Source: Calditrichota bacterium | Lineage (GTDB): Bacteria > Electryoneota > AABM5-125-24 > Hatepunaeales > Hatepunaeaceae | DNA: 64,000 bases | Assembly (NCBI GenBank): GCA_018644935.1 | Contig: JABGPL010000005.1 | Location: 5,211 to 69,210, forward strand | Reading direction: 5' to 3' | Shown here: piece after piece, positions 15,997 to 64,000 of the stretch | Numbering within the stretch: position 1 is the first letter of the stretch | How the letters are laid out: each line of letters begins with the position of its first letter | Program-made: the position numbers and the translations under genes | The notes under the pieces: model-generated | Told to the model about the DNA's origin: nothing | The model's input: the letters and a program-made list of their open reading frames with translations, nothing else | Databases searched by the model: none

Positions 15997-16024
15997 GCAG
16001 CATTTCAACGAAGAGGAGAATTAC

Positions 16025-43334: not shown

Positions 43335-46300
43335 ATGAAACAAGCTCTACTGCTTCTTTCCGTATCCTTTTTTATTGTCGTTTTAATTGCAGTACCAGGT
43401 CACGCTCAATTCGAGCTTTTATGGGGAAGAGGAAATCCGATGGGGATGGGCAATATCCATGGAGTTACCGTTGATCCCGAAACTGGACACCTATATATAA
43501 CTCATTTCGCCGACCAGAGTATACACCATTTTGATGAAGATCTTGAACATGTCGAAACATTCAATATCGGCCTGGGAGGGATACGCGGTTTGGGATTCGA
43601 CACTCAAGAGAACCAATTGATTGTCGCAAACGGTGGAAACATCAGAATATTGAACCTTAATGGTGAATTATTAAGGACCTTTGCGAACAATGGTGGTTCC
43701 AATACAGTTGACCACGATCCTGAACGCGACTTATATGTCGTGGGACGATTTGGTGGAGCAGTTGCCTATTTTAACCGGGATGGTGAACAAGTTGGTGGTT
43801 TTGATTCAGGTGTAAACATCACGGGCATTTGCTATTATCCGATAAACGGCACAATATTCGCCATGGACACAGACGATCCGGTTTCCGAATTCACGATAGA
43901 AGGCGAGCGTATTGGAGAGCCTTTACAAGGCGACCAGATCGTTGAAAATGGTCAAGATCTTGCATATGATTCCAGACAACGTATTCTGTATGCAACAGGC
44001 CAGGTCGCATGGCTTGGTGCTTTTGAAGATAATTATGGTGCGGTGGGAGAACCTGAGGTTAATCCTGAAGGATTCGATCTACAGGTGCCGTTTGGCATGG
44101 CAGGAGAGGAAGTGCTGGTTATTACCAATGTTGGTGAGGAGGGTAGTTCGCTTTCATTTGAAATTGAAGATGTTGGAGAAGGAGTCGATTGGCTGGAATG
44201 CGATCCCACTGAGGGTGAACTGGAGTTAGATGAATCCGCTGAAATTACACTAACAATTGCTACTGAGGATCTTCAACCTGGTAATGTTCAGCGCACGATT
44301 ATTGTTCACACAAACTCTCCAGATTTCAGAGAGGTAGAAATTCCGGTTGCTCTGATGGTGATAGCAGGATTTGGTGAGCTGAGCGGCACAGTTACCGACG
44401 CTGCAAATGACAACCCAATTGAGGGAGCAACAATAACAGTTGAGAACTTCAATCTTGAGGCAGTATCGGATGAAAACGGTAGGTATGTTATCCCCGAAAT
44501 CCCTGAATGGATATTTACAGTGAGTATTACTGCCGAAGATTATCTTCCACAAACAATGTTAGAAATCGAAATTATTGAAGACGAGGTTACCAATTTGGAT
44601 TTCGATATGCTCCATTCGATAGGTGACCTTTCTCTTGAACAAATATCAGAAGAAATCCCAGTCGATGAGGAAGTTGAAATTCCGGTAAACCTGGCAAACC
44701 CTGGAAATGGTCCGTTAACATGGTCTGTTGAGAGAGTATTTCCTGAGGGAATGGAAGCAGATCCTTGGGATTCGCGTGAAGTGTATGCTGCTGGGGATAT
44801 ATTGGAAAATAACCGTCTTGGTGGTGTTGAATTCGTAGATGGTAATTTTTATGTTGCTGGTGGATTATCTGACGGTGAAAACCAAATATACGTTCTTAAT
44901 CGTGATGGGGAACTTGTTCGACAATTCAACCAATTTCAGGATTCAAGGTATGGTTTTCGGGATTTAACTTATGATGGAAATCTGCTCTGGGGAATAGATG
45001 ACAACATAGTGCATGGCTTCACTACCCGAGGGGAGTTGGATGTCACTTTTGATGCTCCTGTCCGCAGTGCTCGTGGGATAACCTGGGATCGAGAGAATGA
45101 GCTACTCTGGATATGTGGAATCACAAGTGACATTTTTGGAGTGAATCGTAATGGTGAAATTGTCAGAGAAATCGAGCGGCCCGGTGATGTGAGAATGTAT
45201 GGACTCGCATGGTACCCTGATGATGCAGATGGTTACAATCTGTATATGTTCTGTAGTAACGGTGAATTTAACCGTCAGATATTCAAGTTCGATCTTGAGA
45301 ACGAGCAAGTCGTTTTTGTCGCGGAACCGGATCTTGAAGGTTCGGCCGGGGCAGCAACCATAACTCGTGCTTGGGACCCCTTTAGCTGGGTGTTTCTGAC
45401 CATTACAAATTCCCCTGATTATATTGAGATCCTGCATATAGAAGCACCGACTGGCTGGGTTGGTATTGAACCCATTGATGGTGTTCTTGATGCAGGCGAA
45501 GATATGGACATGGCGGTCAACCTCAATACATTCGGTTTCCCGGTAAATATTGAATTCACTGTTGATCTTGTTTTTACACACGATGGTGTAGGTGGTGAGA
45601 CCATTCTTCCTGTTTTATTGACTGCTTCAGGGGATGAAGGTCCTGAAGTAAGAACTCTCCGCATGGATTTTGGATGGAATATGGTTTCTGTAAATGTTGT
45701 GCCGGAGAGTGATGATGTGGTTGCAATTACTCAAACGCTTGTTGATGGAGAGCTGATGGAAATGATGAAAAACGGTTCAGGTCAATTCTACAGCCCAGCA
45801 TTCGGTTTTAATAATATCCCTGGATGGGAAGTTACCGACGGTTACTTGATTAAGACAACTGAGGATTGTGAGTTGGAAATTGAGGGTATGCCGGTTGCAG
45901 CAGATGAAGCAATTCCACTGACAGCCGGTTGGCAGATGAAGGGTTATTTCCCTCGTGTTTCGGTTGAAGCTACAGTCGCACTTTCGGGTATCGTTGAAAA
46001 CCTCGAAATGGCAAAAGACGGATCAGGTCGTTTCTACAGTCCTGCCTTTGGATTCAGCAACATGGGAGATTTGATGGAAGGTTTCGGATATATGCTGAAG
46101 ATGTCTGAAGCAATGGATCTTGTTTATGTTGTCGAAGAGAACCGATTAGCACAGAGCAGGATAGTCCCTGGATTTCTACCGATTTTAAAGCCTACAGCAG
46201 AAAACATGAGCCTTCTCGTCTTGCAGGATGTCTCTGCGGAATTTATCGAAATTGGCGTCTACGCAAACAATATTCTTGTCGGATCAGGTCATGCATCTGG

Positions 46301-46769: not shown

Positions 46770-46781
46770 AGAGTTATTTAA

Positions 46782-49700
46782 TTGGAGTTTGTAAAACAAA
46801 ACAACACAAATATCATGTTTTCAATATACCTCAGGATCACTTTAGTAATTGCTATTTCTGTCTTTGTCTCCTTGCCGCTTTACGGGCAAGGAGTCTGGGT
46901 TGAAGATTTTTCAGAAATAAACGAAGATGATTATCATATTGGTGACGACGCGTATTGGTCACAAGATGATGAATTTCTTGTTTTAACCGAAGCACAAGCA
47001 AGTCTGGCGGGTCGAATATATACTATTCAAGAGTACCCGATGGCAATTTTTACTGCCCAATTCGATATTAGAATCGGAGGTGGAGGCGGTGCCGATGGGA
47101 TGACCTTTGCCTGGATAGCCGATTATAATTATCAGCGAGTAAATGGTGGAGCGCTGAATTTTAGAGGTGTTGACGGATTTGCGGTCGAGTTTGACTGCTA
47201 TCCGGGGCAAAATGATCCGAATGGTCAACATATCGGACTCGTCCAGGATGATGTCATTAATCACCTCGATACCTGGGTGACCAATGAAGGTGAACTTGAG
47301 GACAATGAATGGCATACCGTGCGAGTTGTTAACTTTCTCGGACTGGTTCAGGTATTCTGGGAGGATGAATTAGTATTAGAACACCAGATAGAAGACTACG
47401 AACCATTTCCCGGTCATTTCGGCTTTACGGCTGCAACTGGTGGAGTTAACAACTGGCACATCGTTGATAATGTGGTGGTTGCAATTGGTGGTCCTGTCAT
47501 AGATGTTGCTGATGATCCAGTTGCGTTTGGTCCTGTACCAGTTGGAAATGTAACCGAGCAAGTTTTGCAAATTTCAAATGTCGCAGAAGAAGAAGATGAG
47601 TGGCATTCGCTTGAATTCTTGATTACAACAGAGGAAGGTGAAGGTCCTGATTGGTTGAGTGTTGAACCTGCAGAAGGTGTTGTTGCTGCGGGTGAAGCCG
47701 CTGAAATAACTTTATTCGCAAACACTGAAGGATTAGACCCTGGTGAGTATGAACGTGATATTACAATTGCTTCCAACGATGGAGAGAATCCTGAGGTAGT
47801 TGTTGGAGTGCATATATTCGTTGTTGAGGGTTTCGGAAGATTATATGGAGTTGTCACGAATGCTGAGAATGGTGATCCCCTTGAAGGCGCAACGGTTGCT
47901 GTTCCTGAATTTGGTTTCAGTACAGAAACGGACGGAAATGGCAACTACGATTATGCCGAAATCCCTTCCTGGACATATGATGTTATTGTCACAAAAGAGG
48001 ATTTTCTGCCTTTGGAAGTTGTTGAAGTTGAAATAAACCCCAATCAAGAAATAGAAAGGGATTTTGCCCTGCTTCATGCCGACTTTGAACCAAGTCGGGA
48101 TCAAATTGATGTTGAGCTTGCGTTGAATGAATCTCTTGATGTGTCGATTGTTTTCAGCAATTCTGGAAACGGGGCTCTCAACTGGGAAGTATCTCGAGAA
48201 TTTCCTGAAGGTATGGAAGCTGAACCCTGGGAGCACCGGGCAGGAATTCCAGCGGCGGAAATATTAGAAAACAGTCGTCTCGGTGGGGTTGAATTCGTAG
48301 ATGATAATTTTTATGTTGCCGGTGGTTTTGCAGATGATGATAACGTTATATATGTGTTGAGCAGAGAAGGCGAACTCATTCGCCAATTTAATCAACATAC
48401 CGATTCCCGTTATGGATATCGCGATATTGTGTACGATGGTGATTTATTGTGGGGAGTTGATGGAAGAGTGGTGTATGGCTTTACACTTGATGGAGAGCTC
48501 GTTAGAGAGTTGGATACACCAATTAACGGCATCCGTGGAATAACCTGGGACCCGACGAATGAATTACTCTATATGTGCGGAATCACATCCAACATATTTG
48601 TGCTTAACCTTGATGGAGATGTGGTTCATGAGATTGACCGATTAGGTGATCTTAGGCCATACGGTTTAACCTGGTACCCCGATGATCCAGATGGTTTTTT
48701 CCTGCAACTGTTCTGTAGCAACGGTGAATTCAATCATCAGATTTACAGAGCAAACCCGGATAACGGCGAGTTTGAGTTTGTCTCAGAACCTGACATAGAG
48801 GGCTCCGCTGGAGCTGCTGCTGTAAACCGCAGATGGGATCCCTTCAGTTGGGTTTTTATGGGGATGACAAATTCACCAGACCGGATCGAAGTATGGCATC
48901 TGGATTCACCCACCGGGTGGGTAAACGTTGAACCGACCGAAGGGCAAATTGAGGCTGATGAAGAAACTGAAATAATCATTACCCTCGATACTCAAGACTT
49001 TCCTGTCAATATTGAATTTACTGCAGACCTGGTCTTTACCCATGATGGAGTTGGTGGAGAAACAATTATTCCGGTGTCTCTGATGGCCTCGGAAATTGGA
49101 GGTTTATCCGAGAGAACTTTAGATATGGCTTTCGGATGGAATATGGTCTCTGTAAACGTTGATCCGGAAGAACCAGATGTCGTGCAGCTTACTCGTGATC
49201 TTGTTGAAAATGACCTGTTGGAAATTATGAAAAATGGCGCAGGGCAATTCTACAGCCCTTTATTTAACTTTAATAATATTCCCGGTTGGATGGTCGATCA
49301 GGGATACATGTTGAAAACCGCTGAGGATTGTCAGCTTACGATATCTGGTGAAGCAGTTGCACCTGACCAACCTATTGAATTGCATCAGGGTTGGCAGATG
49401 ATCGCATATTTCCCACGTGTTCCTGTCGATGCAATAGAGGCTCTGTCTGGAATCGTCGAATCGTTGGAAATGGCTAAAGACGGGGAGGGAAGATTTTACA
49501 GCCCTGCATTCGGATTTAGTAACATGGGTGACTTGAGTGAAGGAAACGGATATATGATCAAGTTGACCGAGGCTGCTGAGCTAATCTACACAATCGAAGA
49601 TGAACTTGCGCAAAACCTGTCTTACGATTTTCAGCAACCTGAAATTTTGCCAGTAGTTAAGCCAACAGGGGATAACATGAGCCTGTTGGTGATTTCAGAG

Positions 49701-50240
49701 AACCCTTCTGATGATGATCTTGAGGTCGGTGTGTTTGCCTCCAGAAATATGGTTGGATCGGGGCGGATAACGAATGGATACTGCGGTGTTGCAATCTGGG
49801 GCGATGACACTACGACAGAGACTTGTGATGGAGCTCTCATGGGTGAATCACTCAATATCAAACTTCACAATTTGTCAGGAGAAGTCGAAGATGTCAGGTA
49901 CATCTCATTAAGGGGTAAAAATCAATATGACAGCGATGCACTGTGGGCAATTCAGCTTGAGACTAGTGCGTTACCAATAGAATTCGGAATTTCGACCATT
50001 TGGCCAAATCCGTTCAATAACGTGACAAACATTGATTACTCAGTCACAGAACCAGACCGGGTTTCAATTGAACTGTTCAATTTAGTAGGTCAATCAGTAG
50101 CCACAGTTTTTGAAGATGTTAAGACTGCTGGAAGACAAAGGTTTGTTTGGGACGCGTCCGGATATCCTTCGGGGGTATATATGCTCAAGCTCTCTGGAAG
50201 TAGTAATTCTCAAACGCATAAAGTTCTTTTAATCAGGTAG
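46782..50240 (+). CDS. T9SS-sorted surface protein, stalk-family paralog (group B; L-type-lectin/LamG-like head)
   Basis: 1152 aa from a TTG start. ATG 46815 (MFSIYLRITLVIAISVFVSLPLYGQ) is an equally plausible start. The head contains GGGGADGMTFAWIAD and HFGFTAATGGVNNWHIVDN, a legume/bacterial L-type lectin signature. The stalk is colinear with the 43335 gene. The CTD is IWPNPFNNVTNIDYSV...GVYMLKLSGSSNSQTHKVLLIR. Confidence 0.85.
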   Translation: MEFVKQNNTNIMFSIYLRITLVIAISVFVSLPLYGQGVWVEDFSEINEDDYHIGDDAYWSQDDEFLVLTEAQASLAGRIYTIQEYPMAIFTAQFDIRIGGGGGADGMTFAWIADYNYQRVNGGALNFRGVDGFAVEFDCYPGQNDPNGQHIGLVQDDVINHLDTWVTNEGELEDNEWHTVRVVNFLGLVQVFWEDELVLEHQIEDYEPFPGHFGFTAATGGVNNWHIVDNVVVAIGGPVIDVADDPVAFGPVPVGNVTEQVLQISNVAEEEDEWHSLEFLITTEEGEGPDWLSVEPAEGVVAAGEAAEITLFANTEGLDPGEYERDITIASNDGENPEVVVGVHIFVVEGFGRLYGVVTNAENGDPLEGATVAVPEFGFSTETDGNGNYDYAEIPSWTYDVIVTKEDFLPLEVVEVEINPNQEIERDFALLHADFEPSRDQIDVELALNESLDVSIVFSNSGNGALNWEVSREFPEGMEAEPWEHRAGIPAAEILENSRLGGVEFVDDNFYVAGGFADDDNVIYVLSREGELIRQFNQHTDSRYGYRDIVYDGDLLWGVDGRVVYGFTLDGELVRELDTPINGIRGITWDPTNELLYMCGITSNIFVLNLDGDVVHEIDRLGDLRPYGLTWYPDDPDGFFLQLFCSNGEFNHQIYRANPDNGEFEFVSEPDIEGSAGAAAVNRRWDPFSWVFMGMTNSPDRIEVWHLDSPTGWVNVEPTEGQIEADEETEIIITLDTQDFPVNIEFTADLVFTHDGVGGETIIPVSLMASEIGGLSERTLDMAFGWNMVSVNVDPEEPDVVQLTRDLVENDLLEIMKNGAGQFYSPLFNFNNIPGWMVDQGYMLKTAEDCQLTISGEAVAPDQPIELHQGWQMIAYFPRVPVDAIEALSGIVESLEMAKDGEGRFYSPAFGFSNMGDLSEGNGYMIKLTEAAELIYTIEDELAQNLSYDFQQPEILPVVKPTGDNMSLLVISENPSDDDLEVGVFASRNMVGSGRITNGYCGVAIWGDDTTTETCDGALMGESLNIKLHNLSGEVEDVRYISLRGKNQYDSDALWAIQLETSALPIEFGISTIWPNPFNNVTNIDYSVTEPDRVSIELFNLVGQSVATVFEDVKTAGRQRFVWDASGYPSGVYMLKLSGSSNSQTHKVLLIR

Positions 50241-50288
50241 TTGTTAATCTGATTCGTGACATGTCGTCGATAAAATGATATTTTCTTA

Positions 50289-53200
50289 GTGAGGTCAATG
50301 ATGTTTACTGGTCCAAGTATATATAAGTTTTGTACAATCTCTTGTTTTTGCGTAGTGATCCTATCAGGATTGGTTTTCGCCCAGGTTGATTTTAGACAAC
50401 ACGACCTGCCTTTAGATGCGGACAGAGCATGGGATATCTGCACTGCGGATATTGATGGGGATGGAGATGAAGATTTTCTAACAACAGGTGAAAGTCCGGG
50501 TTTTTTCGTATGGTATGAGGTTGATGAGGAAGGCGATTACATCGAGCATATATTCCATGAAGAGGCAGACGGTGCATGTTCTATCCGCGCTGCCGACATT
50601 GATGGTGATGGGGATATGGATATCACCGGAAGTGCTCGCGGAGTTGGTGATGCGTGGTGGTGGGAAAATGATGGTGAACAAAACTTTGAAGCACACATTC
50701 TATCGGAAGATTTTGATAATAATAGCTGGATGCGTCCGATTGATCTCGATGGTGATGGGGATGTGGATATTGTTGGCAGTACGCGAATCAGCTCCCTGCT
50801 CTGGTGGGAGAATGATGGTGAACAAAATTTTGATGAGCAAATTATCGATGGTCAATTCGGTGGGTCAATAGAAATTATTGACTTCGATGGAGATGAAGAT
50901 TTAGATATCACATGTGGAGATTGGAGTCAGGCAACCGTAAGATGGTACGAGAATGATGGAGAGCAGAACTTCGAGCCTCATCAGATAGGGGATCATGGCG
51001 GTGTCTGGGATGTCTATCCCGCAGATTTTGATGCGGATGGTGATATGGATATTACCAGTGTAGGTGAGCGGGATCAATTGGTTATCTGGTGGGAAAATGG
51101 TGGAGATGATAACTTCGAACGGCATGATATTGAAGCAAATATGCTCGGGACTGGTGTGCATGTTGGAGACCTGGATGTCGATGGTGATTCTGATATAATA
51201 GTTGCAGCATACAACCCTGGAATTGTCAAGTGGTATGAAAATGATGGTGAGGGAAATTTTGAGATTCATATAGTTGGTGATAATTTCAATAGTGCGATGC
51301 AGGCATATGCCTCAGATGTCGATTTCGATGGTGATCTTGATGTCATGGCTGCTGCATGGAGTGGTGAAGGAGCACGCTGGTGGGAAAATACACTTGATCC
51401 TGTTCCACCAGAGCCGGAAATTGATCCCAATCCTTTTGAGGTTGATGTGCCTTTCCCGCTCGATGATGAGAACATCATGACAATCACGAATGTTGGGGAT
51501 GAGGGAAGTCAGCTCCTGTTCAATTTGTGGGACGAGGGAGATGGAATAGATTGGCTGTCCATTTGTCCAGTAGAGGGGATAGTGGAATTTGATGAATTTG
51601 CTGAGATTGTGTGCACTTTTTCGACTGAAGATCTCGAGCCTGGTGAATTCGAGCGAACGATAATCATTCGTACAAACGCAAGGGAATTCAGGCAGATAGA
51701 AGTGCCTGTTACAATGAATGTTATTGTAGACAACGGTGAGCTCAGGGGCACTGTTACAGATTTAGCAACAGAAGATCCTATTGAGGGAGCTCGCATCAGT
51801 GTAGAACGTTTTGATTTTCAGGCGGTTTCTGATGAGGATGGGGTATACGTTTTCGATGAAATTCCCGAATGGATCTACACAATCAACATTGAGGCAGAGG
51901 ATTATCTTTCCCAATCAGTTGAAGATGTTGAAGTAATTGAAGACGAGGTAACTATTCTTAATTTTGACCTTTCACACTCTGTTTGTGAATTGTCAATAGA
52001 TAATATCTCCGAGCAAATGGCGGTAAATGAGGCATTGGAAATTGAGTTCACATTGTCAAATCCAGGCAATGGTCCATTAGAATGGAGTGTAAATCGAGTT
52101 TTCCCTGAGGGTATGGAAGCTGATCCATGGGATCACCGACTGGGACTTGCTGCGGGAGATAATCTTGAAAATAACCGACTCGGAGGTATTGAGGTTATAA
52201 ATGGAAACTTCTATGTCGCAGGTGGGATATCGGACGGGGAAAACCTGATTTACGTTATTAATGAGGATGGAGAGGTTCTTCGGCAGATTGCCCAGTTTGG
52301 TGAATCAAGATATGGATATCGTGATATTGCATATGATGGAAACTTGATTTGGGGGATTGATGGAGATGAAGTACACGGATTTACTATTGGTGGAGAGCTG
52401 GAGGTTACATTTAGAGTACCCATCCGAAGCGCGAGAGGGATTGCCTGGGATCGTGAAAATGACCTTCTTTGGATTAGCAGCATTACCTCTGATATTTTTG
52501 GAACTGACCGCAACGGAGAAGTCAACCAGATAATAGAACGACCTGGAGATTTGCGAACCTATGGTTTATCCTGTTATCCTGACGATCCCGATGATTTCAA
52601 ATTATATATGTTTTGTAGTAACGGTGATTTCAACCGGCAGATTCATAAATTGAACATCGAGACCGGAGAATTTGAATTCGTAGTAGAACCAGAGGTCGAG
52701 GGTACCGCCGGTGCATGTACAGTTACCAGAGCCTGGGACCCTTTTAGCTGGGTGTTTACGACAATTACAAACTCACCTGACAGGTTAGAAATTTGGCACT
52801 TAGATGCTCCGACAGGTTGGGTGGATATTGAACCATCAGAAGGAGTAATTGAAGCTGAAAATCAGGTTGATATGACGGTCCAATTGAACACGTTTGCTTT
52901 TCCAGAAGATATCGAATTCACAGTTGATTTAGTATTTGCTCACAATGGAGTAGGAGGTGAATCCGTCATTCCTGTTTCGCTGCTTGCGGGTGATGATGGA
53001 CCCGAAGAGAGAGTACTTGTTCTAGTTGAAGGATGGAATATGGTATCGACTAATGTCGTACCTCAGGAAAATAATGTGACGGTAATAATGGAGCCATTGG
53101 TTGAGAACGGCCTTCTTGAATTATTAAAAAACGGCATTGGACGATTCTATAATCCCGAATTCAATTTCAACAATATCTGGGGGTGGGTTGTTAATGATGG

Positions 53201-54244: not shown

Positions 54245-57200
54245 ATGCCCTTAAGAAATTGCTTTAATCATCATTTTTTATGTTCTTTGCTATTATTGAT
54301 CATGACCTTTCCGGTTCTTGGTCAGATAGAAATCGATCCTTACGGGTTTGGTGTTTCAATGGAAGAAGGTGAGAATAGTCAGGTTCAGGTCATCATCTCA
54401 AACATATCCGAAGATAACTTAAACTATGAGATTGATGCCCGTTTAGTCGAGGAGGAGGATGAACGACGTGGTGGTCCGCGTCGTGACGACCTCGGGGATG
54501 TAATTCGCAGTATTGAAGTTCACGCTGGACGGTGGATTGGCCTCGCTTGGGATGGTGAATTGCTCTGGGGATCTGACCAACGTGATAACTGGCGGATGAC
54601 TCCGGTTAATATGGATGGGGAGGTGTTGGATCAAGTTAATGTCGAAATCAATAATTATTATGGTTCCTGCTGGGATGGTGAGAATTTCTGGCTTGCACAT
54701 TACAATGATAGTAGATTGGCGAGAGTGGATAGGGAGGGCCGATTGCTTAACGCCATCCAGATAAATGCTCAACCATTCGGGATGACTTGCGACGGAGAAA
54801 CACTCTGGTATGCACGCTATCAAGCCCAGGATATTCAACAGATCACGCTCGAAGGTGAAGTCCTGCGCACATGGGATTGCAATGGGATTGAAGCGAGACG
54901 AACCATGGATCTCGCCTGGGTTCCTGATCACCCGGATGGAATGCTCTGGATTACAGCTTGTGATCCAGGTACGATTTATCAGGTCAATGTTGAGGAAGAT
55001 CCTCCTGAGATTGTACAGACTGTAAATGTTGAAGACAGTGATGTTTACGGTCTCGAACATGATGGTGAGAATCTCTGGTACACCACGGATCAGGGAGATT
55101 GGATTTGCATTGACGATGGAGTTGCGGAAATTCGTATGCTGGCATTTGATCCAAATGAAGGAGAGATTCAAGGTCAGGGTGTAGTTGAATTGGATGCAAT
55201 TATACTCGGTGAAGGAATTGAAGCCGGAATTTATAATTATCTGGTGGAAATTAGCTTTTTTGACCCTGATAACGAGGAAGATGAACCGATCCTGATCACT
55301 ATGTCAGTAGTTGTTTCAATTGATTCTCCGACTGCTGATTTGGTGGGTATTGTTAGCAGCTCCCGAGATGATCAGGTTATTCCAGATGCGAAAGTTGAGC
55401 TATACGATAGTTATGAGATAATTCGAATTACTGACGAGGAAGGCAGGTATGAAATTGATGCATTGCCTGCGGGTGCATACACATTCACGATCTCAGCAGA
55501 AGATTTTCTAACAGAGACCGTTGAGTTTAACATCGATGGTGAAGGTGAAATTGAATTGAATTTTGAGTTGGCTCAAGCTGAATTTGTTTTAGAACCTGAG
55601 GAAATTGCAGCAGAACTCGAGCCGGGTGAAGAGTTCCAAACAATGATCGGAGCATCGAATACCGGAAATGGACCTTTAACTTTTATGTCAGAAAGAAGGC
55701 TAATTGGTGATGCAAACGCAGATCCGTGGAATCTAAGGATCGATGTCCCTGCCGGCATGATAACTGATGATGCACGCGTTCATGGAGCGGTGTTTATCGA
55801 GGACAATTTTTATGCCAGCGGTGCAAATGCAGGTGAACCTGCTATTTATGTGATAAATCGTGAACAGGAACTCGTCTCCCAATATCCTCAACTTGGTGAG
55901 GCGCGTTATGGCTATAAAGATCTGGCTACTGACGGAGAAGTTATCTGGGGTTCAGGAGAACGAAATATCTATGGTTTTACACCTGATGGTGAAGAAGTGA
56001 CATCATTTGACTGTGGAATATCCCCCTGCAATAACCTCGCATGGGATTCAGATAGGGAGATCTTATGGGCATCCGGGACAACAACCGATATTGCAGGATT
56101 TGATCAGGATGGAAATCAAGTTGCTGAAATAGACAGATTGGAGTATCGTATTTATGGTTTAGCTTACTGGCCGGATGATCCTGATGGCTATCAACTCTAT
56201 ATATTTCATAAAATCAACGAAGTCGGTAATCTAATGATCGCCAAAATTGATTTAGAAAACAATCAGGCAATAGATGTTGAGATTCTCGAACCCGAAGGTG
56301 GTGGTTCAGCTCAGGGATGTTTCATCACAAACCAGTATGATATATATAGCTGGGTGTTCATGGGAATGGCCAACAGTGGAGCCGAAGACCGCATAGACAT
56401 CTGGCAATTGGATGCCCGAAAGGACTGGATGGCGATTCAGCCGGTCGAGGGCGTAATTGCAGGTGGCGAGGAACAGGAATTAACAGTAACTCTTGATGCT
56501 ACAGGTTTACCGCAAGCTTTATTTGAGGGCGAAATACTCTTCACACACGATGGCGTTGGCGGTGAGACAACTCTGCCTATCTCTTTGCAGGTTGGGGCAG
56601 GTGGTGGACCAGAAATTTTTGTGATCGAGCTTGCAAACGGTTGGAATATGGTCTCTGCTTATGTCCAACCCGATCCGGAGGACGTAATTGGGATAATGGA
56701 GGATCTGGTCGAAGCTGAAACACTTATTATGGTCAAGAATGGTAGTGGACAATTTTACAATCCCCAGTTCGGCTTTAACAATATTCCCGGATGGCAGGCT
56801 GACGAGGGATATATGATCAAAATGGATGGCGCAGACGAACTCACACTGACTGGAGAATCTTTGCCCTGGGATACTATCATCCCACTTGAGGCAGGCTGGC
56901 AGATGATTAGCTTTTACCCTCGTGAAGGCATAGATGCAATAGCAGCATTGTCCGGTATTGTGGACGCTCTTCTAATGGCAAAAGACGGTTCGGGGAGATT
57001 TTACAGCCCGGCTTTCGGTTTCAGCAATATGGGTGATATGGTTCCCGGGCAGGGATACTTGCTGAAAATGGATGAGGATGCAGAGTTAGTGTACACGGTT
57101 GAAGAAGAGCTTGCTTCTCAATCATCTCACTACCTGCAAACGAGCTTACTCCCAGACCATCCGAATACCGGTGAGAATATGAGTATGCTCATCCTCACGG

Positions 57201-57733
57201 ACATATCAGAAGGTGAGATCGGGATATTCTCAGGTGGTAATCTTATCGGCTCCGGTGTTATTAGGAATGGTAAATGTGGTATTGCAGTTTGGGGTGATGA
57301 TTCAACAACTCCAGATATTGATGGTGCATTAAATGGTGCTCCATTAGAAATATTACTTCAGGATGGAAATGGTTTGCATCCTGTTAAATCAGATGTATTA
57401 TCTGGAGATAACAGATATTTAGCCAATGGATTCCAGGTTGTTCGGATTACCGACATTACTGCTTCACCCGAGCAATTCGGGATAGTTGATGTTTATCCAA
57501 ATCCATTTAACAGCAGTACAAGTTTAACCTATAATCTGCCCGAGGCGGCTCGGATTGAGGTCTCTCTTTACGATCTTGCAGGCAGGCAAGTAGCGGATAT
57601 CGTATCAAGGAATGCCAAGGCTGGTCAGCACACCATCACGGTGGACGGTGCTGGACTATCCAGTGGTGTTTATGTAGTAAAACTTTGCTCTTATTCAGGG
57701 ATTTCGAAGAGAAAACTAACATTAGTCAAGTAA
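54245..57733 (+). CDS. T9SS-sorted surface protein, stalk-family paralog (group A; WDGExLW-blade propeller head)
   Basis: 1162 aa with GGAGGA 5 nt upstream of the ATG and signal peptide ...LLLLIMTFPVLGQ. The head is an Ig-like domain, the motif EEEDERRGGPRRDDLGDVI, then blades AWDGELLWGS, CWDGENFWLA, TCDGETLWYA, EHDGENLWYT. The stalk and the CTD VYPNPFNSSTSLTYNL...GVYVVKLCSYSGISKRKLTLVK follow. Confidence 0.85.
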   Translation: MPLRNCFNHHFLCSLLLLIMTFPVLGQIEIDPYGFGVSMEEGENSQVQVIISNISEDNLNYEIDARLVEEEDERRGGPRRDDLGDVIRSIEVHAGRWIGLAWDGELLWGSDQRDNWRMTPVNMDGEVLDQVNVEINNYYGSCWDGENFWLAHYNDSRLARVDREGRLLNAIQINAQPFGMTCDGETLWYARYQAQDIQQITLEGEVLRTWDCNGIEARRTMDLAWVPDHPDGMLWITACDPGTIYQVNVEEDPPEIVQTVNVEDSDVYGLEHDGENLWYTTDQGDWICIDDGVAEIRMLAFDPNEGEIQGQGVVELDAIILGEGIEAGIYNYLVEISFFDPDNEEDEPILITMSVVVSIDSPTADLVGIVSSSRDDQVIPDAKVELYDSYEIIRITDEEGRYEIDALPAGAYTFTISAEDFLTETVEFNIDGEGEIELNFELAQAEFVLEPEEIAAELEPGEEFQTMIGASNTGNGPLTFMSERRLIGDANADPWNLRIDVPAGMITDDARVHGAVFIEDNFYASGANAGEPAIYVINREQELVSQYPQLGEARYGYKDLATDGEVIWGSGERNIYGFTPDGEEVTSFDCGISPCNNLAWDSDREILWASGTTTDIAGFDQDGNQVAEIDRLEYRIYGLAYWPDDPDGYQLYIFHKINEVGNLMIAKIDLENNQAIDVEILEPEGGGSAQGCFITNQYDIYSWVFMGMANSGAEDRIDIWQLDARKDWMAIQPVEGVIAGGEEQELTVTLDATGLPQALFEGEILFTHDGVGGETTLPISLQVGAGGGPEIFVIELANGWNMVSAYVQPDPEDVIGIMEDLVEAETLIMVKNGSGQFYNPQFGFNNIPGWQADEGYMIKMDGADELTLTGESLPWDTIIPLEAGWQMISFYPREGIDAIAALSGIVDALLMAKDGSGRFYSPAFGFSNMGDMVPGQGYLLKMDEDAELVYTVEEELASQSSHYLQTSLLPDHPNTGENMSMLILTDISEGEIGIFSGGNLIGSGVIRNGKCGIAVWGDDSTTPDIDGALNGAPLEILLQDGNGLHPVKSDVLSGDNRYLANGFQVVRITDITASPEQFGIVDVYPNPFNSSTSLTYNLPEAARIEVSLYDLAGRQVADIVSRNAKAGQHTITVDGAGLSSGVYVVKLCSYSGISKRKLTLVK

Positions 57734-57758
57734 TGTAAACGCTAAAACAGAGGGTATC

Positions 57759-60700
57759 ATGTTACAGCATAAGATTACCAGGATACTAATTACAGCTCTG
57801 CTGCTGACATTCTGCGGCACTTCCATGTCTCAGATAACGGTTATGCCACATGGAATCTGTGTTTCTATGGATGATAATGACGCAGTGGATTCTGAGTTAA
57901 TTCTAATTAATGATTATGAAGAACCTATTACTTTTAGCATAGATTACCATCTCATTTCAAACGAGGAAGAACGTCGGCAAGGACCTCAAAGAGATGAACC
58001 GGGGGAAATAATCCAGCAATTCTATTCACCACTCTACAATATGGGTGGGATGGCATTTGATGGAGAACTCCTATGGGGAAGTTCCCAAACTACGAATCAA
58101 CTCTGTGCAATGACACTTGAAGGCGAAGAGGTCATGGTGGTAGACATCAACGATCAACCAAAAACTTTGGCTTTTGATGGTGAATTGTTATGGTGCAGCG
58201 AATGGGGTGGAAGTAATATGTTTATCTACGATCTTGAGGGTGAACAAATAGACCAATTCAATATGGGAATGGAATTTAGGAGTATTATGGGAATGACCTC
58301 AGATCAGGAAGAATTTATCTTCATGAATACAATGAACCCTTACCAAATTCGTGTAATTTCAATTGAAGATCGTGAAGAAGTAGCTGCTTTTGAATACAGA
58401 GACGCAGTTGGAGGTGCTGATATCTGGTCGATAGAATGGGTCGAATCTCATCGTGATGGTCAACTCTGGTGCAATTTTACTGGCCACCTCTATCAGCTTT
58501 CGGTGGATGAAGAATGGAATGTCGAAGCAGTCAGCGACTTTGATTGGAATACCGACTCGCCATATAATGATCTTGCTCATGATGGTGAATATATGTGGCA
58601 TGGTATGTGGGATTCCAACACCTGGTTTCAATGTGATGAGGGAGTTTCAGAATATTTTATGCTCACCTTCAATCCTGAGGAGGGAGAAATACCGGGTGAA
58701 GAAAACATTCCGGTTGAGCTCTTTATCACTTCAGAAGGAATTGAACCAGGGAATTACAATATCTTAATCAAGGTAGAAACTGATCGAGAAATTGTAGAAC
58801 TAACTGCAATTGTTTCTGTTGATTCTCCAGCGGCATTCCTGACCTGCAGAGTCACAGATGCAGAGACAGAAGAAACTATGAGGGATGTCAGGATTGACGT
58901 GGACAGGTATGAAATCACCAGATTCACCAATAATAACGGAATTTCCGATTTTGAAAGTCTGCCAACGGGTGAATATAATATCACTTTTTCCAGTGTGGAT
59001 TATCTGACACACGTTGAACCCTTCAGGATTGATGGTGAAGGTGAGGTGATGATTCAGGTGGAAATGCTTCACGCTGAATGCACCACAAATCGCGACAACA
59101 TAGAATCAGCCCTTGAACCCGGCAACATCATGCAGACCGAGATAACTGTCTCAAACGCTGGTAATGGACCTCTTACGTATACTACCGAGAAGAGGTTGCT
59201 CGGCCAGGCTATTGAAGAACCATGGGAGCGGCGACGCTCCTTGAATGTGGGTGAGATAACGGGGGATTCTCGAATACAGGGGATTGCCTTTTTCGATGAC
59301 CTTTTTTATTTCGCAGGAGGCAATGATAGAAATCCGGTGATGTATGTCCTTAATCGTGAGGGTGAGGTGATCAATGAATATGCTCAATTAGGTGGAGGTC
59401 GTAACGGATATAAAGACATTGCTTATGACGGTGAGCTAATCTGGGGATCTGGAGAAAGAAATGCATACGGATTTACACCTGATGGTGAACAGGTTACCTC
59501 TTTTGACACAGGGATCAGTTCTTGCAGTAATATTGCCTGGGATAATGAACGGGAAATTCTTTGGATGTCTGGGATTACCACAGATATAACTGGTCTTGAC
59601 CGTGAGGGAAATTTAGTTGCAGAACTGAACCGACAGGGCATCAGGATCTATGGACTATCCTTCTGGCCGGATGACCCCGATGGATATCAGCTTTACATTT
59701 TCCACAAAAACAATGATATCGGTGACAAAATTGTCACAAAAATGAATGTCGATAACGGAGATCTTCTCGATGTAGTCATACTCGAACCTGATGCAATAGG
59801 AACCGCACAAGGCTGCTTTATTACCAACCATTATGACATTTACAGTTGGGTTTTCATGGCAAATGTCAATAATGCTGCAAATGACAGACTTGAAATCTGG
59901 CAGGTCGATGCTCGCAAAGACTGGATGGCAATCGAACCTGCTGAGGGAGAAATAGAGGCCGGTGATGATCAGGATTTTATAATCACACTCGACGCTACAG
60001 GTCCGCCACCAGCGTTATTCGAGGGTGAGATTATTTTCAATCATGATGGAATCGGTGGCCAGACACCGATCACTGTTTCACTTCAAGTCGGTGAAGGTGG
60101 AGGTGGTGAACAGGTTGATGAGATGATGCTCAACTTTATCGACGGATGGAACATGGTCTCCGCATACGTTCAACCTGATCCAGATGAAATCGTTGAGATA
60201 ATGCAAGAATTAGTCGAAGCAGATCAGCTTATATTAATGAAAAACGGAGTTGGTCGATTCTACAATCCAGCGTTTAACTTCAATAACATCCCCGGCTGGC
60301 TGGTCAGCGAGGGCTACATGGTGAAAGTAGATGGTGTTGCTGAAATGGTAATTGCAGGTGAATCAGTGAATCCCGATACACCTCTGCCATTAATAGAAGG
60401 CTGGCAGATGATTAGCTATTACCCTCGTGAAGGCATAGATGCAATAGCTGCATTGTCCGATATTGTGAATGCTCTCATAATGGCGAAAGACGGTTCCGGG
60501 AGATTTTACAGCCCGGCTTTCGGCTTCTGCAATATGGGTGATATGGTTCCCGGGCAGGGATATCTCCTGAAGATGGATCAGGCTACTGAACTTATTTATA
60601 CAGTTGAAGAAGAGCTTGCCAGACAGTCATCTCCAAGCATGACTCCGAGTATACTTCCAGTCCACCCAAATACAGGTGAAAATATGAGCCTGTTAATACA

Positions 60701-61238
60701 AACAGGCGAATTAGATGGTGAAATTGGTGTATATTCAAAAGGTCATCTCGTTGGTTCCGGGATTATCCAGGATGGCAAATGTGGTATTGCCGTTTGGGGT
60801 GATGACCACACAACCTCCGAAATAGATGGAGCAATCAAGGGTGAGGAACTCGAAGTTTCGCTTCACAATGTTAGTGAAATGGTGCCAGTTAAGATTGAGA
60901 CAATTTTTGGCGAAGACAAATATAGCACTGATGGTTTTTCTGTTCTGCGAATTCAGGATGTCAAGGCTTCACCTGGACAGTTCGGGATAGTCGATGCATA
61001 CCCGAATCCGTTTAACAATCGTTCCAGTATTAAATACAACCTGAAAGAATCCTCTGAAATAGATCTTGCATTATTCGATCTAACTGGCCGAAGGGTTCTC
61101 GACCTTGTTTCAGGTAGAAAAAAGATCGGTCAATATTCAATTACGATAGAAGGCTCCTCCTTGTCAAGTGGTATGTACATTGTACGACTGCAGGCTGGCG
61201 AGCAAATATCGAAAAGGAAGGTCACATTAGTTAAGTGA
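57759..61238 (+). CDS. T9SS-sorted surface protein, stalk-family paralog (group A; WDGExLW-blade propeller head)
   Basis: 1159 aa with GAGGG upstream and signal peptide ...LLLTFCGTSMSQ. Head: NEEERRQGPQRDEPGEII, then AFDGELLWGS, AFDGELLWCS, AHDGEYMWHG. The stalk is colinear with the 54245 gene. The CTD is AYPNPFNNRSSIKYNL...GMYIVRLQAGEQISKRKVTLVK. Confidence 0.85.
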   Translation: MLQHKITRILITALLLTFCGTSMSQITVMPHGICVSMDDNDAVDSELILINDYEEPITFSIDYHLISNEEERRQGPQRDEPGEIIQQFYSPLYNMGGMAFDGELLWGSSQTTNQLCAMTLEGEEVMVVDINDQPKTLAFDGELLWCSEWGGSNMFIYDLEGEQIDQFNMGMEFRSIMGMTSDQEEFIFMNTMNPYQIRVISIEDREEVAAFEYRDAVGGADIWSIEWVESHRDGQLWCNFTGHLYQLSVDEEWNVEAVSDFDWNTDSPYNDLAHDGEYMWHGMWDSNTWFQCDEGVSEYFMLTFNPEEGEIPGEENIPVELFITSEGIEPGNYNILIKVETDREIVELTAIVSVDSPAAFLTCRVTDAETEETMRDVRIDVDRYEITRFTNNNGISDFESLPTGEYNITFSSVDYLTHVEPFRIDGEGEVMIQVEMLHAECTTNRDNIESALEPGNIMQTEITVSNAGNGPLTYTTEKRLLGQAIEEPWERRRSLNVGEITGDSRIQGIAFFDDLFYFAGGNDRNPVMYVLNREGEVINEYAQLGGGRNGYKDIAYDGELIWGSGERNAYGFTPDGEQVTSFDTGISSCSNIAWDNEREILWMSGITTDITGLDREGNLVAELNRQGIRIYGLSFWPDDPDGYQLYIFHKNNDIGDKIVTKMNVDNGDLLDVVILEPDAIGTAQGCFITNHYDIYSWVFMANVNNAANDRLEIWQVDARKDWMAIEPAEGEIEAGDDQDFIITLDATGPPPALFEGEIIFNHDGIGGQTPITVSLQVGEGGGGEQVDEMMLNFIDGWNMVSAYVQPDPDEIVEIMQELVEADQLILMKNGVGRFYNPAFNFNNIPGWLVSEGYMVKVDGVAEMVIAGESVNPDTPLPLIEGWQMISYYPREGIDAIAALSDIVNALIMAKDGSGRFYSPAFGFCNMGDMVPGQGYLLKMDQATELIYTVEEELARQSSPSMTPSILPVHPNTGENMSLLIQTGELDGEIGVYSKGHLVGSGIIQDGKCGIAVWGDDHTTSEIDGAIKGEELEVSLHNVSEMVPVKIETIFGEDKYSTDGFSVLRIQDVKASPGQFGIVDAYPNPFNNRSSIKYNLKESSEIDLALFDLTGRRVLDLVSGRKKIGQYSITIEGSSLSSGMYIVRLQAGEQISKRKVTLVK

Positions 61239-61252
61239 ATTATGGGGATGAA

Positions 61253-64000
61253 ATGTCTGACTTAAGAAAAGTTTTTTTAGTTTTAATAACAATTTTGTTT
61301 GTATCAGTCAATTGGGTTTCGGCACAGGTTTCCGTTATTCCACATGGATTTGCAACTTCCTTAGATGAGGGTGAAGATGCCGACTATGAACTCATAATAG
61401 TAAATGATTTTGAAGCTGACGTTGAATTCAACATCGACTACAGTTTGATTAATGATGAAAATGACCGTCGAGGGGGGCCAGCCCGAGATGATCCTGGTGA
61501 CATACTTGGTCGATTCGCATGGCAGCATGCAGGCGAGGGTAGTTACAAGGGAGGTCTCGCCTGGGACTCAGAAAACGAATGGATGTGGCTTACCACTTAT
61601 AGACCCGGGTGGATTGGAGCAGTTGACCCGAACGACGATTTCCGTGAGGCTGTCGAAAGCTGGCAATCTGACGGGCAAACTCCGATGGGAGCTGCGTGGC
61701 TGGATGGCATTCTGTATGTTGTCGCGTGGCAGAATCGGTTCCTCGGCATGTGGGATGTGGATGGGAACAATCTGGGGAATTTTGATCTACAATTTACTCC
61801 TACAGGAGTGTCGAACACAGACGAATTGCTGTTAATCATGAACGATGCTGGTGAGCACGACATCCATGTGATGTCTGCTGATGGTGATGAAATCGCTGTT
61901 ATAAATGACTACCGACAGTTTGTTCAAGGCCAGCCAGGCAATTCACGTTGCTTGCAGTGGGTTGAAAATCATCGGGAAGGTCAACTGTGGATAAACTCCC
62001 TGAGAACCATTTATCAGATTCGAATTAATGATGACTGGGAAGCTGTTGAACTCACCCAGCGGTTTGTCTTCGCCGGAGCACAACTTTGGGACGGTATAGG
62101 ACATGATGGTGAAAATATGTGGCTCGGAACGGTTGCTCAAGCGGAATACCTCATCTTTGATGACGGTGTAAGAGAGTTCCAGATGCTCACATTCGATCCC
62201 GAAGGGGGGGAAATACCGGGTGGGGATTCCATTCCGATAAATGTCTTTATGACTACTGAGGGTATTGAGCCCGGTGTTTATAATATCTTGATTACTATAG
62301 AGTATGGGCAAGAGACCTTGGAGATGTCGGCAGTTGTAACCGTCAACTCCGAGTCGGCAACCGTTATCTGTAGTGTAATCGATGCAGACACAGAAGAGGT
62401 AATCGAAGATGTGATCATTGATTTGGATCAATATCTAATCACCAGGTCTACCGATGAGGACGGAGCATGCGAATTTGAAAATCTCCCTACGGGTGAATAT
62501 GAATTCACTTTCTTTGCCACTGATTACCTGCTTCTTGCGGAACAATTTCAAATAGACGGCGAAGGGGATCATGACCTCAACGTTGAACTTTTTCATTCCG
62601 AATGCAACTTGGATCGTGATGAGATCAGCGCCGAACTCGCTCCCGATGAAGAAATGCAAACTGAAATCACGATCAGTAATGATGGCAACGGACCTCTGAC
62701 TTATGTCACAGACAGGAGATTGCTAGGTGATGCAAACGCAGACCCATGGGAACTGAGGCTAGATGTCCCCGCCGGTGTTATAACCGACGATGCACGTGTT
62801 CACGGTGCAGTATTTGTTAATGATAATTTCTATGCCAGTGGTGCGAATACAGGAGAACCTGCCATTTATGTCATGAATCGAGAACAGGAACTCGTTTCTC
62901 ACTATCCTCAGCTTGGTGAAGGTCGGTATGGTTATAAAGATCTGGCTTCTGATGGAGAAGCTATCTGGGGGTCGGGAGAACGTATGGTTTATTGTTTTAC
63001 ACCTGATGGTGAGGAAGTGACATCCTTTGACAGTGGCATTTCGCCGTGCAATAATCTAGCATGGGATCCCGACCGGGAGATCTTATGGGTATCCGGAACA
63101 ACGACAGATATTGCAGGATTTGATCGGGATGGAAATCAAGTTGCTGAAATAGACAGATTGGAGTATCGTATTTATGGTTTAGCTTACTGGCCGGATGATC
63201 CTGATGGCTATCAACTCTATATATTTCATAAAATCAACGAAGTGGGCAATTTAATGGTTGCCAAAATTGATTTAGAGAACAATCAGGCAATTGACGTAGT
63301 AATTCTCGAACCCGAAGGTAGCGGATCAGCTCAGGGATGCTTCATCACAAACCAGTATGACATATATAGTTGGGTGTTCATGGGGATGGCCAACAGTGGA
63401 GCTGAAGACCGCATAGATATCTGGCAATTGGATGCCAGAAAGGACTGGATGTCAATTGAGCCTGTTGAAGGGGTAATTGCAGATGGCGAGGAACAAGAAT
63501 TCACGATAACTCTAGATGCTTCAGATCTACCGCAAGCTTTATTTGAGGGCGAAATCCTCTTCACACACGATGGAGTTGGAGGCGAGACAACTCTGCCGGT
63601 CTCTTTGCAAGTTGGGGCAGGTGGTGGACCAGAAAATTTTGTGATCGAGCTTGCAAACGGTTGGAATATGGTCTCTGCTTATGTTCAACCTGAACCAGAT
63701 GATATCATCGAAATAATGGTAGATCTTATTGAAGCGGGATCACTCCTGATGGTCAAAAACGGGGCAGGGCAATTTTACAATCCTCAATTCAATTTCAACA
63801 ACATTCCTGGTTGGATAGTTAGTGAAGGTTACATGATCAAAATGGATGCTGCGGATGAGCTGACACTTACCGGTGATGCGGTGCTCTGGGATACTGCAAT
63901 CCCACTAGAGGTTGGCTGGCAGATGATCAGCTATTACCCTCGGAATGGGATTGATGCAGTCGCAGCATTGTCGGGTATTGTGGATAATCTTCTAATGGCA
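61253..64000 (+). CDS. Stalk-family paralog (group A), 3' end beyond the window; T9SS CTD expected but not visible
   Basis: Not in the ORF track because it is open to the right edge. ATG 61253 with GGGGA upstream gives MSDLRKVFLVLITILFVSVNWVSAQ. Hand translation stays open for 916 codons: NDENDRRGGPARDDPGDIL, propeller head, CarboxypepD_reg-like VICSVIDADTEEVIEDVII, a core ~90% nt identical to the 54245 gene (offset 7020), and the GW-FY repeat starting at GWNMVSAYVQPEPDD (about 63658). Confidence 0.8.
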   Translation, partial: MSDLRKVFLVLITILFVSVNWVSAQVSVIPHGFATSLDEGEDADYELIIVNDFEADVEFNIDYSLINDENDRRGGPARDDPGDILGRFAWQHAGEGSYKGGLAWDSENEWMWLTTYRPGWIGAVDPNDDFREAVESWQSDGQTPMGAAWLDGILYVVAWQNRFLGMWDVDGNNLGNFDLQFTPTGVSNTDELLLIMNDAGEHDIHVMSADGDEIAVINDYRQFVQGQPGNSRCLQWVENHREGQLWINSLRTIYQIRINDDWEAVELTQRFVFAGAQLWDGIGHDGENMWLGTVAQAEYLIFDDGVREFQMLTFDPEGGEIPGGDSIPINVFMTTEGIEPGVYNILITIEYGQETLEMSAVVTVNSESATVICSVIDADTEEVIEDVIIDLDQYLITRSTDEDGACEFENLPTGEYEFTFFATDYLLLAEQFQIDGEGDHDLNVELFHSECNLDRDEISAELAPDEEMQTEITISNDGNGPLTYVTDRRLLGDANADPWELRLDVPAGVITDDARVHGAVFVNDNFYASGANTGEPAIYVMNREQELVSHYPQLGEGRYGYKDLASDGEAIWGSGERMVYCFTPDGEEVTSFDSGISPCNNLAWDPDREILWVSGTTTDIAGFDRDGNQVAEIDRLEYRIYGLAYWPDDPDGYQLYIFHKINEVGNLMVAKIDLENNQAIDVVILEPEGSGSAQGCFITNQYDIYSWVFMGMANSGAEDRIDIWQLDARKDWMSIEPVEGVIADGEEQEFTITLDASDLPQALFEGEILFTHDGVGGETTLPVSLQVGAGGGPENFVIELANGWNMVSAYVQPEPDDIIEIMVDLIEAGSLLMVKNGAGQFYNPQFNFNNIPGWIVSEGYMIKMDAADELTLTGDAVLWDTAIPLEVGWQMISYYPRNGIDAVAALSGIVDNLLMA

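Follow-up and report, generated by a model that had tools for sequence, protein, structure and literature searches.

What is made from a set of large, look-alike genes, six of them in a tandem array and two inverted elsewhere, and how did the differing N-terminal parts of their products arise? The question is raised by a 64-kb stretch of DNA (the window) from a Calditrichota bacterium (contig JABGPL010000005.1), in which eight copies of one gene family were found. The copies were named A to H, with F as the reference copy; P-numbers denote homologous protein records outside the window and L-numbers denote loci in relatives. On the evidence of their sequences we lean towards reading the products as paralogous type A cargo of a type IX secretion system (T9SS), that is, as modular cell-surface binding proteins of a bacterium of Calditrichota/Electryoneota type. 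The copies were found to contain a Sec leader followed by a variable head, a shaft of immunoglobulin-like (Ig), CarboxypepD_reg, Ig, beta-propeller and Ig domains, a cassette of two GWFY repeats and an NMS domain, and a type A C-terminal domain (CTD).

The shared stalk and the export signals

The earlier note had placed eight coding sequences with a colinear stalk of about 750 amino acids (aa) in the window, and all eight open reading frames (ORFs) were found where it had put them (Table 1), H being truncated by the window end. The 916 visible aa of H were 100% identical to P0002 (1166 aa). Copy A matched P0044 at 99.8% identity beginning at residue 16 of A, and therefore A probably starts at Met16. 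In all-against-all BLASTP the C-terminal block common to all copies was found to be colinear over 800-870 aa at 39-58% identity, and the N-terminal 230-530 residues were alignable only among F, G and H. Pfam placed CarboxypepD_reg in every copy and HYDIN/ASH-type Ig matches where Ig-like domains had been proposed. The profile of the 'propeller-like core' was found to match beta-propeller chains of the PDB (2ymu at E = 2e-23; PQQ-type propellers at 1e-7). Together with an AlphaFold2 (AF2) model of the cassette, these matches bore out the proposed stalk order, including the GW-FY twin repeat and the NMS domain.

The PNPFN-type CTD, which had been assigned to the T9SS, was confirmed above curated cut-offs. 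PF18962 (Por_Secre_tail) scored 33-46 bits against a cut-off of 27 in all seven complete copies and ended at most 7 residues from the C-terminus, and in copies A-F, the six that were scanned, TIGR04183 of NCBIfam reached 39.7-47.4 bits against its cut-off of 23. At the N-terminus, hydrophobic leaders with A, G or S at position -1 were seen by inspection in all eight copies, and the leader of F was found as a helix at residues 2-19 of the AF2 model. The predicted signal peptides of six copies (C, D, E, F, G and H) were found to end in A, G or S followed by Gln (AQ, GQ or SQ; for example 43335-43410 and 54245-54320), and A and B contained Glu and Asp, respectively, in place of the Gln. The leader ends of C-H resemble the Bacteroidetes 'Q-rule', in which an N-terminal pyroglutamate follows cleavage by signal peptidase I.

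No family of Pfam, NCBIfam or the PDB was found to cover the stalk, as had been supposed, and NCBIfam matches were limited to the CTD and CarboxypepD_reg. The Kustd1514-type surface-layer (S-layer) model NF052345 reached 22.8-44.5 bits against 1400, confined to CarboxypepD_reg, which places the copies outside that family. Identity to F per 30-aa window, calculated for 117 full-length homologues, was 29-75% along the stalk and 45-75% from the second Ig domain (Ig2) and the propeller onward, and fell to roughly 20% (13-40%) for the head. Conservation was highest in the stalk propeller and the cassette (55-75%).

The AlphaFold and Foldseek comparison that had been proposed for the stalk was made with F. 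The full-length AF2 model was obtained with a predicted local distance difference test score (pLDDT) of 86.9 and a predicted template modelling score (pTM) of 0.47. Confidence dipped at residues 71-79, 957-960 and 1072-1076, falling below 50 at the last of these, and the model is consistent with domains on linkers plus an exposed linker before the CTD. Its best Foldseek matches were generic tandem propellers only (template modelling (TM) scores 0.15-0.26, 10-12% identity).

Variable heads and their replacement

The heads were found to span about 200-450 aa, and about 530 aa in B. The FG-GAP head proposed for E was upheld at 115.5 bits against 26.9 over six stretches (FG-GAP_3, PF13517), and PF01839 scored 31 bits against 22.1; seven blades had been described. 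The propeller heads proposed for F, G and H were likewise upheld. The F head matched Vgb_lyase (best, E = 9e-9), SGL and DUF6923, all weakly, a hidden Markov model (HMM) of the stalk propeller matched the heads of C, F and G and gave no match in H, and the H head aligned with that of F at 29% identity. The heads of C, F, G and H therefore appear to be beta-propellers that are paralogues of the stalk's own propeller, given the matches of C, F and G to the stalk-propeller HMM.

Three other assignments were upheld in part. The head of C, described as an NHL-like propeller, is a propeller by the stalk-propeller HMM, but the Pfam scan contained no NHL match and only a weak SGL match below the cut-off (E = 0.0016-0.0019). 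The L-type-lectin-like head of D matched PF18483 at E = 7e-14 over profile positions 7-209 of 215, but at 52.6 bits against a cut-off of 78.3. The NIDO-like head of A gave a marginal match to PF06119 (E = 0.014, 37 of 186 profile positions), but its 15.8 bits against 25 leave it outside that family. The B head, described as two jelly-roll-like units, contained no family detectable with Pfam, and a sequence search of the PDB with the A and B heads gave no meaningful match. Two histidines, His229 and His272 (F numbering; near 54929 and 55058), were found to be invariant in 67 F-type heads that are otherwise 25-45% identical, and both sit in the repeated blade motif (x)DGExLW.

The position of the head was examined with an HMM built from the contiguous first Ig domain (Ig1) of C/D/E-type proteins. 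In F- and A-type proteins, its positions 3-46 matched residues ~22-63, weakly and with consistent placement in more than 10 proteins, and its positions 46-113 matched residues ~289-357 significantly; Pfam HYDIN matches in these proteins covered the second half of the profile only. In the F model, four strands at residues 28-67 lead over a disordered linker (71-79) to the head propeller, after which strands resume at 299-359. The commonest classes (F-type propeller and A-type) thus appear to have the head set within an Ig1 loop; Ig1 is uninterrupted in C, D and E, where it follows the head.

The DNA of the copies was found to be mosaic. F and H were 84% identical over 1,317 nt, from the propeller to the first GWFY repeat, against 53-55% just upstream; F and G reached 86% in the second GWFY repeat; and the nearest relative of E was C along the stalk, switching to G in the NMS domain. 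Identity at 4-fold-degenerate sites was saturated at about 25-35% outside these tracts. For F and H it was 63% (71/113) in the propeller and the third Ig domain (Ig3) against 35% in the flanks (18/52; Fisher p = 8e-4), for E and G 69% (31/45) in the NMS domain against 36% in the rest of the stalk (45/124; p = 2e-4), and for F and G 73% in the second GWFY repeat against 26% upstream (p = 3e-6). Because identity rises in the tracts at synonymous sites, the pattern points to exchange of segments among array members, by gene conversion or recombination, and not to differential protein constraint.

The C/D/E stalk clade (50-58% identity) was found to carry three unrelated heads. In three pairs of relatives (P0081/P0083, P0053/P0057 and P0096/P0105) the stalks were 73-79% identical and the central heads unalignable, and in the latter two pairs the N-terminal ~70-95 residues were alignable again. 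The heads have therefore been replaced repeatedly on conserved stalks, and the conserved DNA that flanks a head, with half of Ig1 upstream and the stalk downstream, would permit a cassette-type exchange. Clustering of the central head regions of 119 proteins, with the shared N-terminal piece removed, gave seven clusters: a propeller class of 76 members that includes C, F, G and H, a class of 22 members that is absent from the window, an A-type class of 15, FG-GAP and lectin-like classes of 2 each, and the singletons B and P0085. Head types were found to be kept between genomes at 45-81% identity (C/P0060 81%, D/P0106 52%, E/P0041 46%), and the repertoire is accordingly stable and not hypervariable. 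The diversification by head swapping that the earlier note had proposed is thus supported by replacement on conserved scaffolds and by the conversion mosaics, but in a repertoire that is not hypervariable and in which 76 of 119 heads belong to one propeller class derived from that of the stalk.

The 22-member class contained P0017, P0107 and 20 others (for example at L004 10001-13489) and had no Pfam match. It may represent the ancestral head, since its member P0107 occurs only once in its metagenome-assembled genome (MAG), with housekeeping genes around it. Readings of the locus as a diversity-generating retroelement or a polymorphic toxin system were dropped, as no reverse transcriptase or toxin domain was found in Pfam scans of the window ORFs of at least 200 aa.

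The cassette, the relatives and the neighbouring genes

The last ~290 aa before the CTD were found to contain two homologous alpha/beta repeats of about 85 aa with GW...FY motifs (GWFY1 and GWFY2), followed by the NMS beta-sandwich of about 105 aa. The cassettes of F and of the neighbouring giant protein Z had no Pfam match even at E <= 10, no NCBIfam match was found, and the cassette profile had no sequence relative in the PDB. An AF2 model from a 26-sequence alignment was confident (mean pLDDT 91.8, pTM 0.87), which fits one predicted rigid unit, and its Foldseek comparison with the PDB gave nothing at E <= 1e-3 (TM <= 0.19). In an exhaustive search of 1.84 billion cluster representatives, the profile matched 12,397 proteins at E <= 1e-3, 7,258 at 1e-10 and 2,290 at 1e-30, the weaker matches probably including NMS-only ones. 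In every listed host with a whole-profile match (345-7,635 aa), the cassette ended ~85 residues before the C-terminus. Por_Secre_tail was present in all eight hosts sampled, and their N-terminal parts contained a C25 peptidase, DUF7948 with an SBBP propeller, a beta-helix, a sortilin/BNR propeller or Ig arrays. All hosts whose source name gives a phylum were from Calditrichaeota/Calditrichota. The cassette is a general pre-CTD module of this lineage, and the family of the eight genes is one large group among its users.

Two neighbours of the family bear on the stalk. The last ~400 aa of Z are in common with the family at 31-35% identity, preceded by at least 10 HYDIN/DUF1573-type Ig domains, cadherin-like domains and eight internal NMS-like beta-sandwiches. 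The gingipain-like protein X, with Propeptide_C25 and Peptidase_C25 matches at 140 bits, contains the CarboxypepD_reg-Ig-propeller-Ig part of the stalk at 25-29% identity plus a type A CTD, and contains no GWFY/NMS cassette. As X has only the shaft part of the stalk besides its CTD and Z has only the cassette end in common with the family, the stalk is composed of two modules with separate histories, CarboxypepD_reg-Ig-propeller-Ig and GWFY-GWFY-NMS-CTD. The common scaffold that had been claimed is therefore real as a conserved support under different heads, but it is composite. X was also considered as the PorU sortase and rejected (NF033707 at 51.1 bits against 420) in favour of a gingipain-like cargo. 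In Y, the type A CTD was the only detectable domain, and the other ~880 residues had no Pfam or NCBIfam match.

The search suggested for the stalk, made with that of F, returned 227 proteins at E <= 1e-5 among 8,000 candidates scored. The best 120 of the 227 were mostly of 1,100-1,280 aa (some entries were partial and shorter) and were recorded as 'T9SS type A sorting domain-containing', 'carboxypeptidase regulatory-like domain-containing' or 'hypothetical protein'. Their sources were MAGs of Calditrichaeota/Calditrichota, records classified no further than 'bacterium', and Candidatus Hatepunaea meridiana, which NCBI places in Ca. Electryoneota of the FCB group. The Ca. Hatepunaea paper does not mention the family proteins (PMC9324843), and nothing came up in literature searches on this family or on the T9SS in Calditrichota. 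Species-representative genomes were scanned with the C-terminal module, and architectures were read by HMM on the ORFs of the loci. There were 206 confirmed matches, and the best 80 came from 11 MAGs. MAG CAYLYZ01 was found to contain ~50 full-stalk genes, including a co-directional run of at least 10 on a 45.9-kb contig, an array recovered in two independent assemblies; four further MAGs contained 7-11 copies each, and in the most distant MAGs one or two isolated copies were surrounded by housekeeping genes. An expansion specific to this lineage, through tandem duplication, accounts for the distribution, and an assembly artefact does not.

The gaps inside the array were 12, 48, 119, 25 and 14 nt, within the range given before. 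For each of P0002, P0016 and the partial P0031 the record names one contig only, 76,828 nt in length, so that past the window the array probably extends by two or more genes. The one good promoter claimed at 43196-43224 (+) was found to match the sigma-70-like consensus at 11 of 12 positions (TTGACA, 17-nt spacer, TATATT) in the 301-nt gap upstream of C. Two further 11/12 matches fall inside genes, however, and the total count of 52 is not enriched over the shuffled expectation of 41 +/- 7. No intergenic terminator or Rfam element was found in the window, and inverted repeats of the phase-variation kind, sought around both the promoter gap and that of 119 nt, came to one 12-nt pair, probably by chance. 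GC skew tracks the coding strand, at +0.13 to +0.28 over the plus-strand array and -0.10 to -0.14 over A and B, and the sense strand of these long genes is distinctly G-rich over C. An antisense ORF of 242 aa (54443-55171, -) inside gene F lies where the compositional skew between strands is strong and is probably a chance frame.

A conserved accessory gene was sought beside copies in 70 loci of relatives, by clustering of neighbour ORFs and Pfam searches of the recurring families, and none was found; these families were histidine kinases, ABC ATPases, LptF/G and one small family without a Pfam match. The A/B pair stands beside citrate lyase genes (10149-12922, -; CitF and a fusion of a CitD-like acyl carrier protein with CitE) and is syntenic with locus L014 of CAYLYZ01, in which the block and its adjoining SLT/solute-binding gene are kept and two family copies occupy the A/B positions. 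A left-open ORF at 3-1598 (-) contains a CAAX-protease (Rce1-like) domain and has ~1,150-aa homologues beside family copies in L014 and L048. A 143-aa ORF that adjoins it at 1573-2004 (-) looks QueF-like by eye. The stretch 14766-20103 (+) contains a NifU-Mrp/NUBPL fusion of 373 aa and, after it, a pair of DUF3857 paralogues of ~680 aa, both with DUF3858 matches and the first also with a transglutaminase core.

Table 1. Family copies, neighbouring large proteins, recombination tracts and the domain map of copy F (window positions; residues where so marked)
Feature	Position	Strand	Description
Copy A	2141-5680	-	ORF of 1179 aa; head with weak NIDO match, probably inserted in Ig1; probable start Met16 (nt 5635), giving 1164 aa
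Copy B	5717-9715	-	1332 aa; stalk similarity from CarboxypepD_reg onward
Copy C	43335-46769	+	1144 aa; signal peptide, predicted beta-propeller head, intact Ig1, full stalk, type A CTD
Copy D	46782-50240	+	1152 aa; L-type-lectin-like head (residues 48-226), stalk, CTD
Copy E	50289-54125	+	1278 aa; FG-GAP propeller head, stalk, CTD; NMS closest to that of G
Copy F	54245-57733	+	1162 aa; reference copy; 99.8% identical to P0001
Copy G	57759-61238	+	1159 aa; F-type head; 99.5% identical to P0026
Copy H	61253-64000	+	ORF runs off window end; F-type head; full form P0002
Z	20823-33941	+	4372-aa Ig/cadherin-like giant; ends in GWFY-GWFY-NMS-CTD
Y	34915-37800	-	961 aa; type A CTD
X	39311-43033	-	1240-aa gingipain-like C25 peptidase; divergent from array
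Cassette GWFY1-GWFY2-NMS of F	56612-57478	+	no Pfam/NCBIfam/PDB relative; confident AF2 model
Putative gene-conversion tract F/H	55664-56980 in F; 62684-64000 in H	+	84% nt identity
Putative gene-conversion tract E/G	53120-53904 in E; 60233-61017 in G	+	NMS region; rest of E stalk closest to C
F: signal	residues 1-24		
F: Ig1 first half	residues 25-70		
F: linker	residues 71-84		
F: head propeller	residues 85-290		
F: Ig1 second half	residues 291-358		
F: CarboxypepD_reg	residues 359-444		
F: Ig2	residues 445-497		
F: stalk propeller	residues 498-730		
F: Ig3	residues 731-789		
F: GWFY1	residues 790-876		
F: GWFY2	residues 877-959		
F: NMS	residues 975-1078		
F: CTD	residues 1079-1162		

Proposed function and alternatives

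If the T9SS biology of Bacteroidota applies, the proteins would be exported by Sec and then by the T9SS translocon, guided by the CTD. Cleavage in the flexible linker that follows NMS (F residues 1072-1076, of low AF2 confidence) would take off the CTD, and the new C-terminus, and hence the cassette, would stay at the outer-membrane surface. The shaft would project the head outward, and the different heads (propeller, lectin-like, FG-GAP, NIDO-like and other folds) would bind different ligands such as particles, polymers or other cells. A lectin or adhesin function is suggested by domain type.

Several points weigh against this reading. No T9SS machinery gene (GldK/L/M/N, SprA/Sov, PorV or PorU) was found in the window, and ten large ORFs near the copies of relatives gave only a PorW/SprE-like tetratricopeptide repeat match at 76 bits against 250. 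Several head matches (lectin, NIDO, SGL and Vgb_lyase) are below threshold, and the Pfam families nearest to the commonest head are enzyme propellers, for which a catalytic role is conceivable. Surface retention after removal of the CTD is extrapolated from Porphyromonas, and many type A cargos of Flavobacterium are released rather than retained. The strong conservation of the stalk propeller also suggests that the stalk does more than hold the head.

A tentative extension, which we would hold with less confidence than the binding-protein reading itself, is that the cassette serves as a lineage-specific, universal pre-CTD module for anchoring or assembly in the T9SS of Calditrichota, holding diverse cargos to the surface or to each other. 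A new rigid fold may then be kept at the C-terminus of the mature cargo, as an attachment mode not known from Bacteroidota; its cargos may be adhesin-like proteins, C25 peptidases, Ig giants, beta-helix and BNR proteins; and recombination between conserved flanks may swap the head, inserted in the Ig loop, as one cassette.

The proteins could instead form a surface coat, S-layer-like or an 'electron-dense surface layer', in which the stalk propeller and the cassette give lateral or anchoring contacts among cassette-bearing cargos and the heads mainly lend variety to the outer surface (against phages or grazers, for instance) instead of binding nutrients. The placing of the highest conservation in exactly these two parts would fit a coat, as would the cassette common to peptidases, Ig giants, beta-helix and BNR proteins, its predicted rigidity and copy numbers of up to ~50 per genome. 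However, the NCBIfam S-layer models match the generic CarboxypepD_reg only, the heads are conserved between genomes and not hypervariable, and the gaps searched contained no phase-variation element. We regard a coat as unlikely.

It is quite unlikely that the proteins are secreted enzymes, with lactonase- or lyase-type catalytic propeller heads that are released or displayed and degrade detritus, and with the stalk as a carrier. Vgb_lyase and SGL are the best Pfam matches of the F head, the two histidines are invariant, the adjoining C25 peptidase uses part of the same stalk, and relatives were described as degraders of proteinaceous matter (PMC9324843). All enzyme-family matches are nevertheless under the curated cut-offs (34.9 bits against 50; 23.5 against 26.3), the conserved residues belong to the blade motif and may be structural, and the lectin-like and FG-GAP heads belong to non-catalytic families.

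Adhesins of gliding motility of the SprB/RemA kind, moved over the cell surface by the T9SS motor, were also considered. The large size of these T9SS cargos, their Ig-like repeats and the lectin-type head recall this kind, and RemA of Flavobacterium has a lectin domain. The CTD is of type A (TIGR04183), however, and not of the type B of SprB, no PorP/SprF-like protein was found among the recurring neighbour families of the 70 loci, and relatives were reported to have flagellar genes (PMC9324843), which makes this origin very improbable. The chance that the array is an assembly artefact or a decaying set of pseudogenes is negligible, since the reading frames are intact (1144-1332 aa), the copies differ by 42-61% in protein and therefore are not collapsed or duplicated reads, other records contain F, G, A and H again at 99.5-100% identity, and similar arrays of relatives stand in two independent assemblies.

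As binding proteins displayed by the T9SS, the copies may be compared with known systems. The type A CTD cargo of P. gingivalis (RgpB/Kgp and other surface-layer CTD proteins) is alike in its Sec signal, in the Ig-like domain or domains before a beta-sandwich CTD of ~80 aa with a PNPFN-type motif, in TIGR04183/PF18962 scores above cut-off and in the same C-terminal logic of the adjoining peptidase X. In contrast, the present family has a stalk of 800-870 aa and a cassette of 290 aa without counterpart in Pfam, NCBIfam or the PDB, tandem arrays of up to at least 10 genes and a host outside Bacteroidota. SprB and RemA of F. johnsoniae are likewise very large T9SS-secreted surface proteins of Ig-like repeats, with a lectin domain in RemA. 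The CTD of SprB is of type B and its cognate partner is PorP/SprF-like, whereas the CTD here is of type A and no partner gene was found among the neighbour families checked. The repeats-in-toxin adhesins of the type I secretion system (Marinomonas MpIBP, Vibrio FrhA) share a membrane-proximal anchor, an Ig-like shaft and exchangeable distal ligand-binding modules, some of which are domain insertions, but use another secretion system, show no sequence relationship and are encoded by one giant gene and not by arrays of mid-sized paralogues. Tandem WD40/PQQ-type propellers such as 2ymu resemble the stalk propeller in profile and gave the best Foldseek matches of the model, but the likeness is at the level of fold only and none of them is a T9SS cargo. 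The kind of protein, type A T9SS cargo, is thus already known; what is new is a stalk uncovered by Pfam, NCBIfam or PDB sequences and a cassette without a structural neighbour in the PDB.

To our knowledge, T9SS biology is known almost entirely from Bacteroidota. If the reading as displayed binding proteins is true, a lineage outside that phylum devotes up to ~175 kb in one genome (~50 genes of ~3.5 kb each) to one uncharacterised cargo family, and a confidently folding cassette of 290 residues stands before the CTD of thousands of different cargo clusters. Should the cassette be an element of surface retention or assembly, it would represent a novel means of attachment as well as a portable scaffold for display. 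The array would also be a clean natural case of modular evolution by tandem duplication, segmental conversion and head replacement in an Ig loop. Because the hosts are uncultured bacteria of sediment and anoxic water, with protein degraders among their relatives, the heads may reveal what these cells hold on to.

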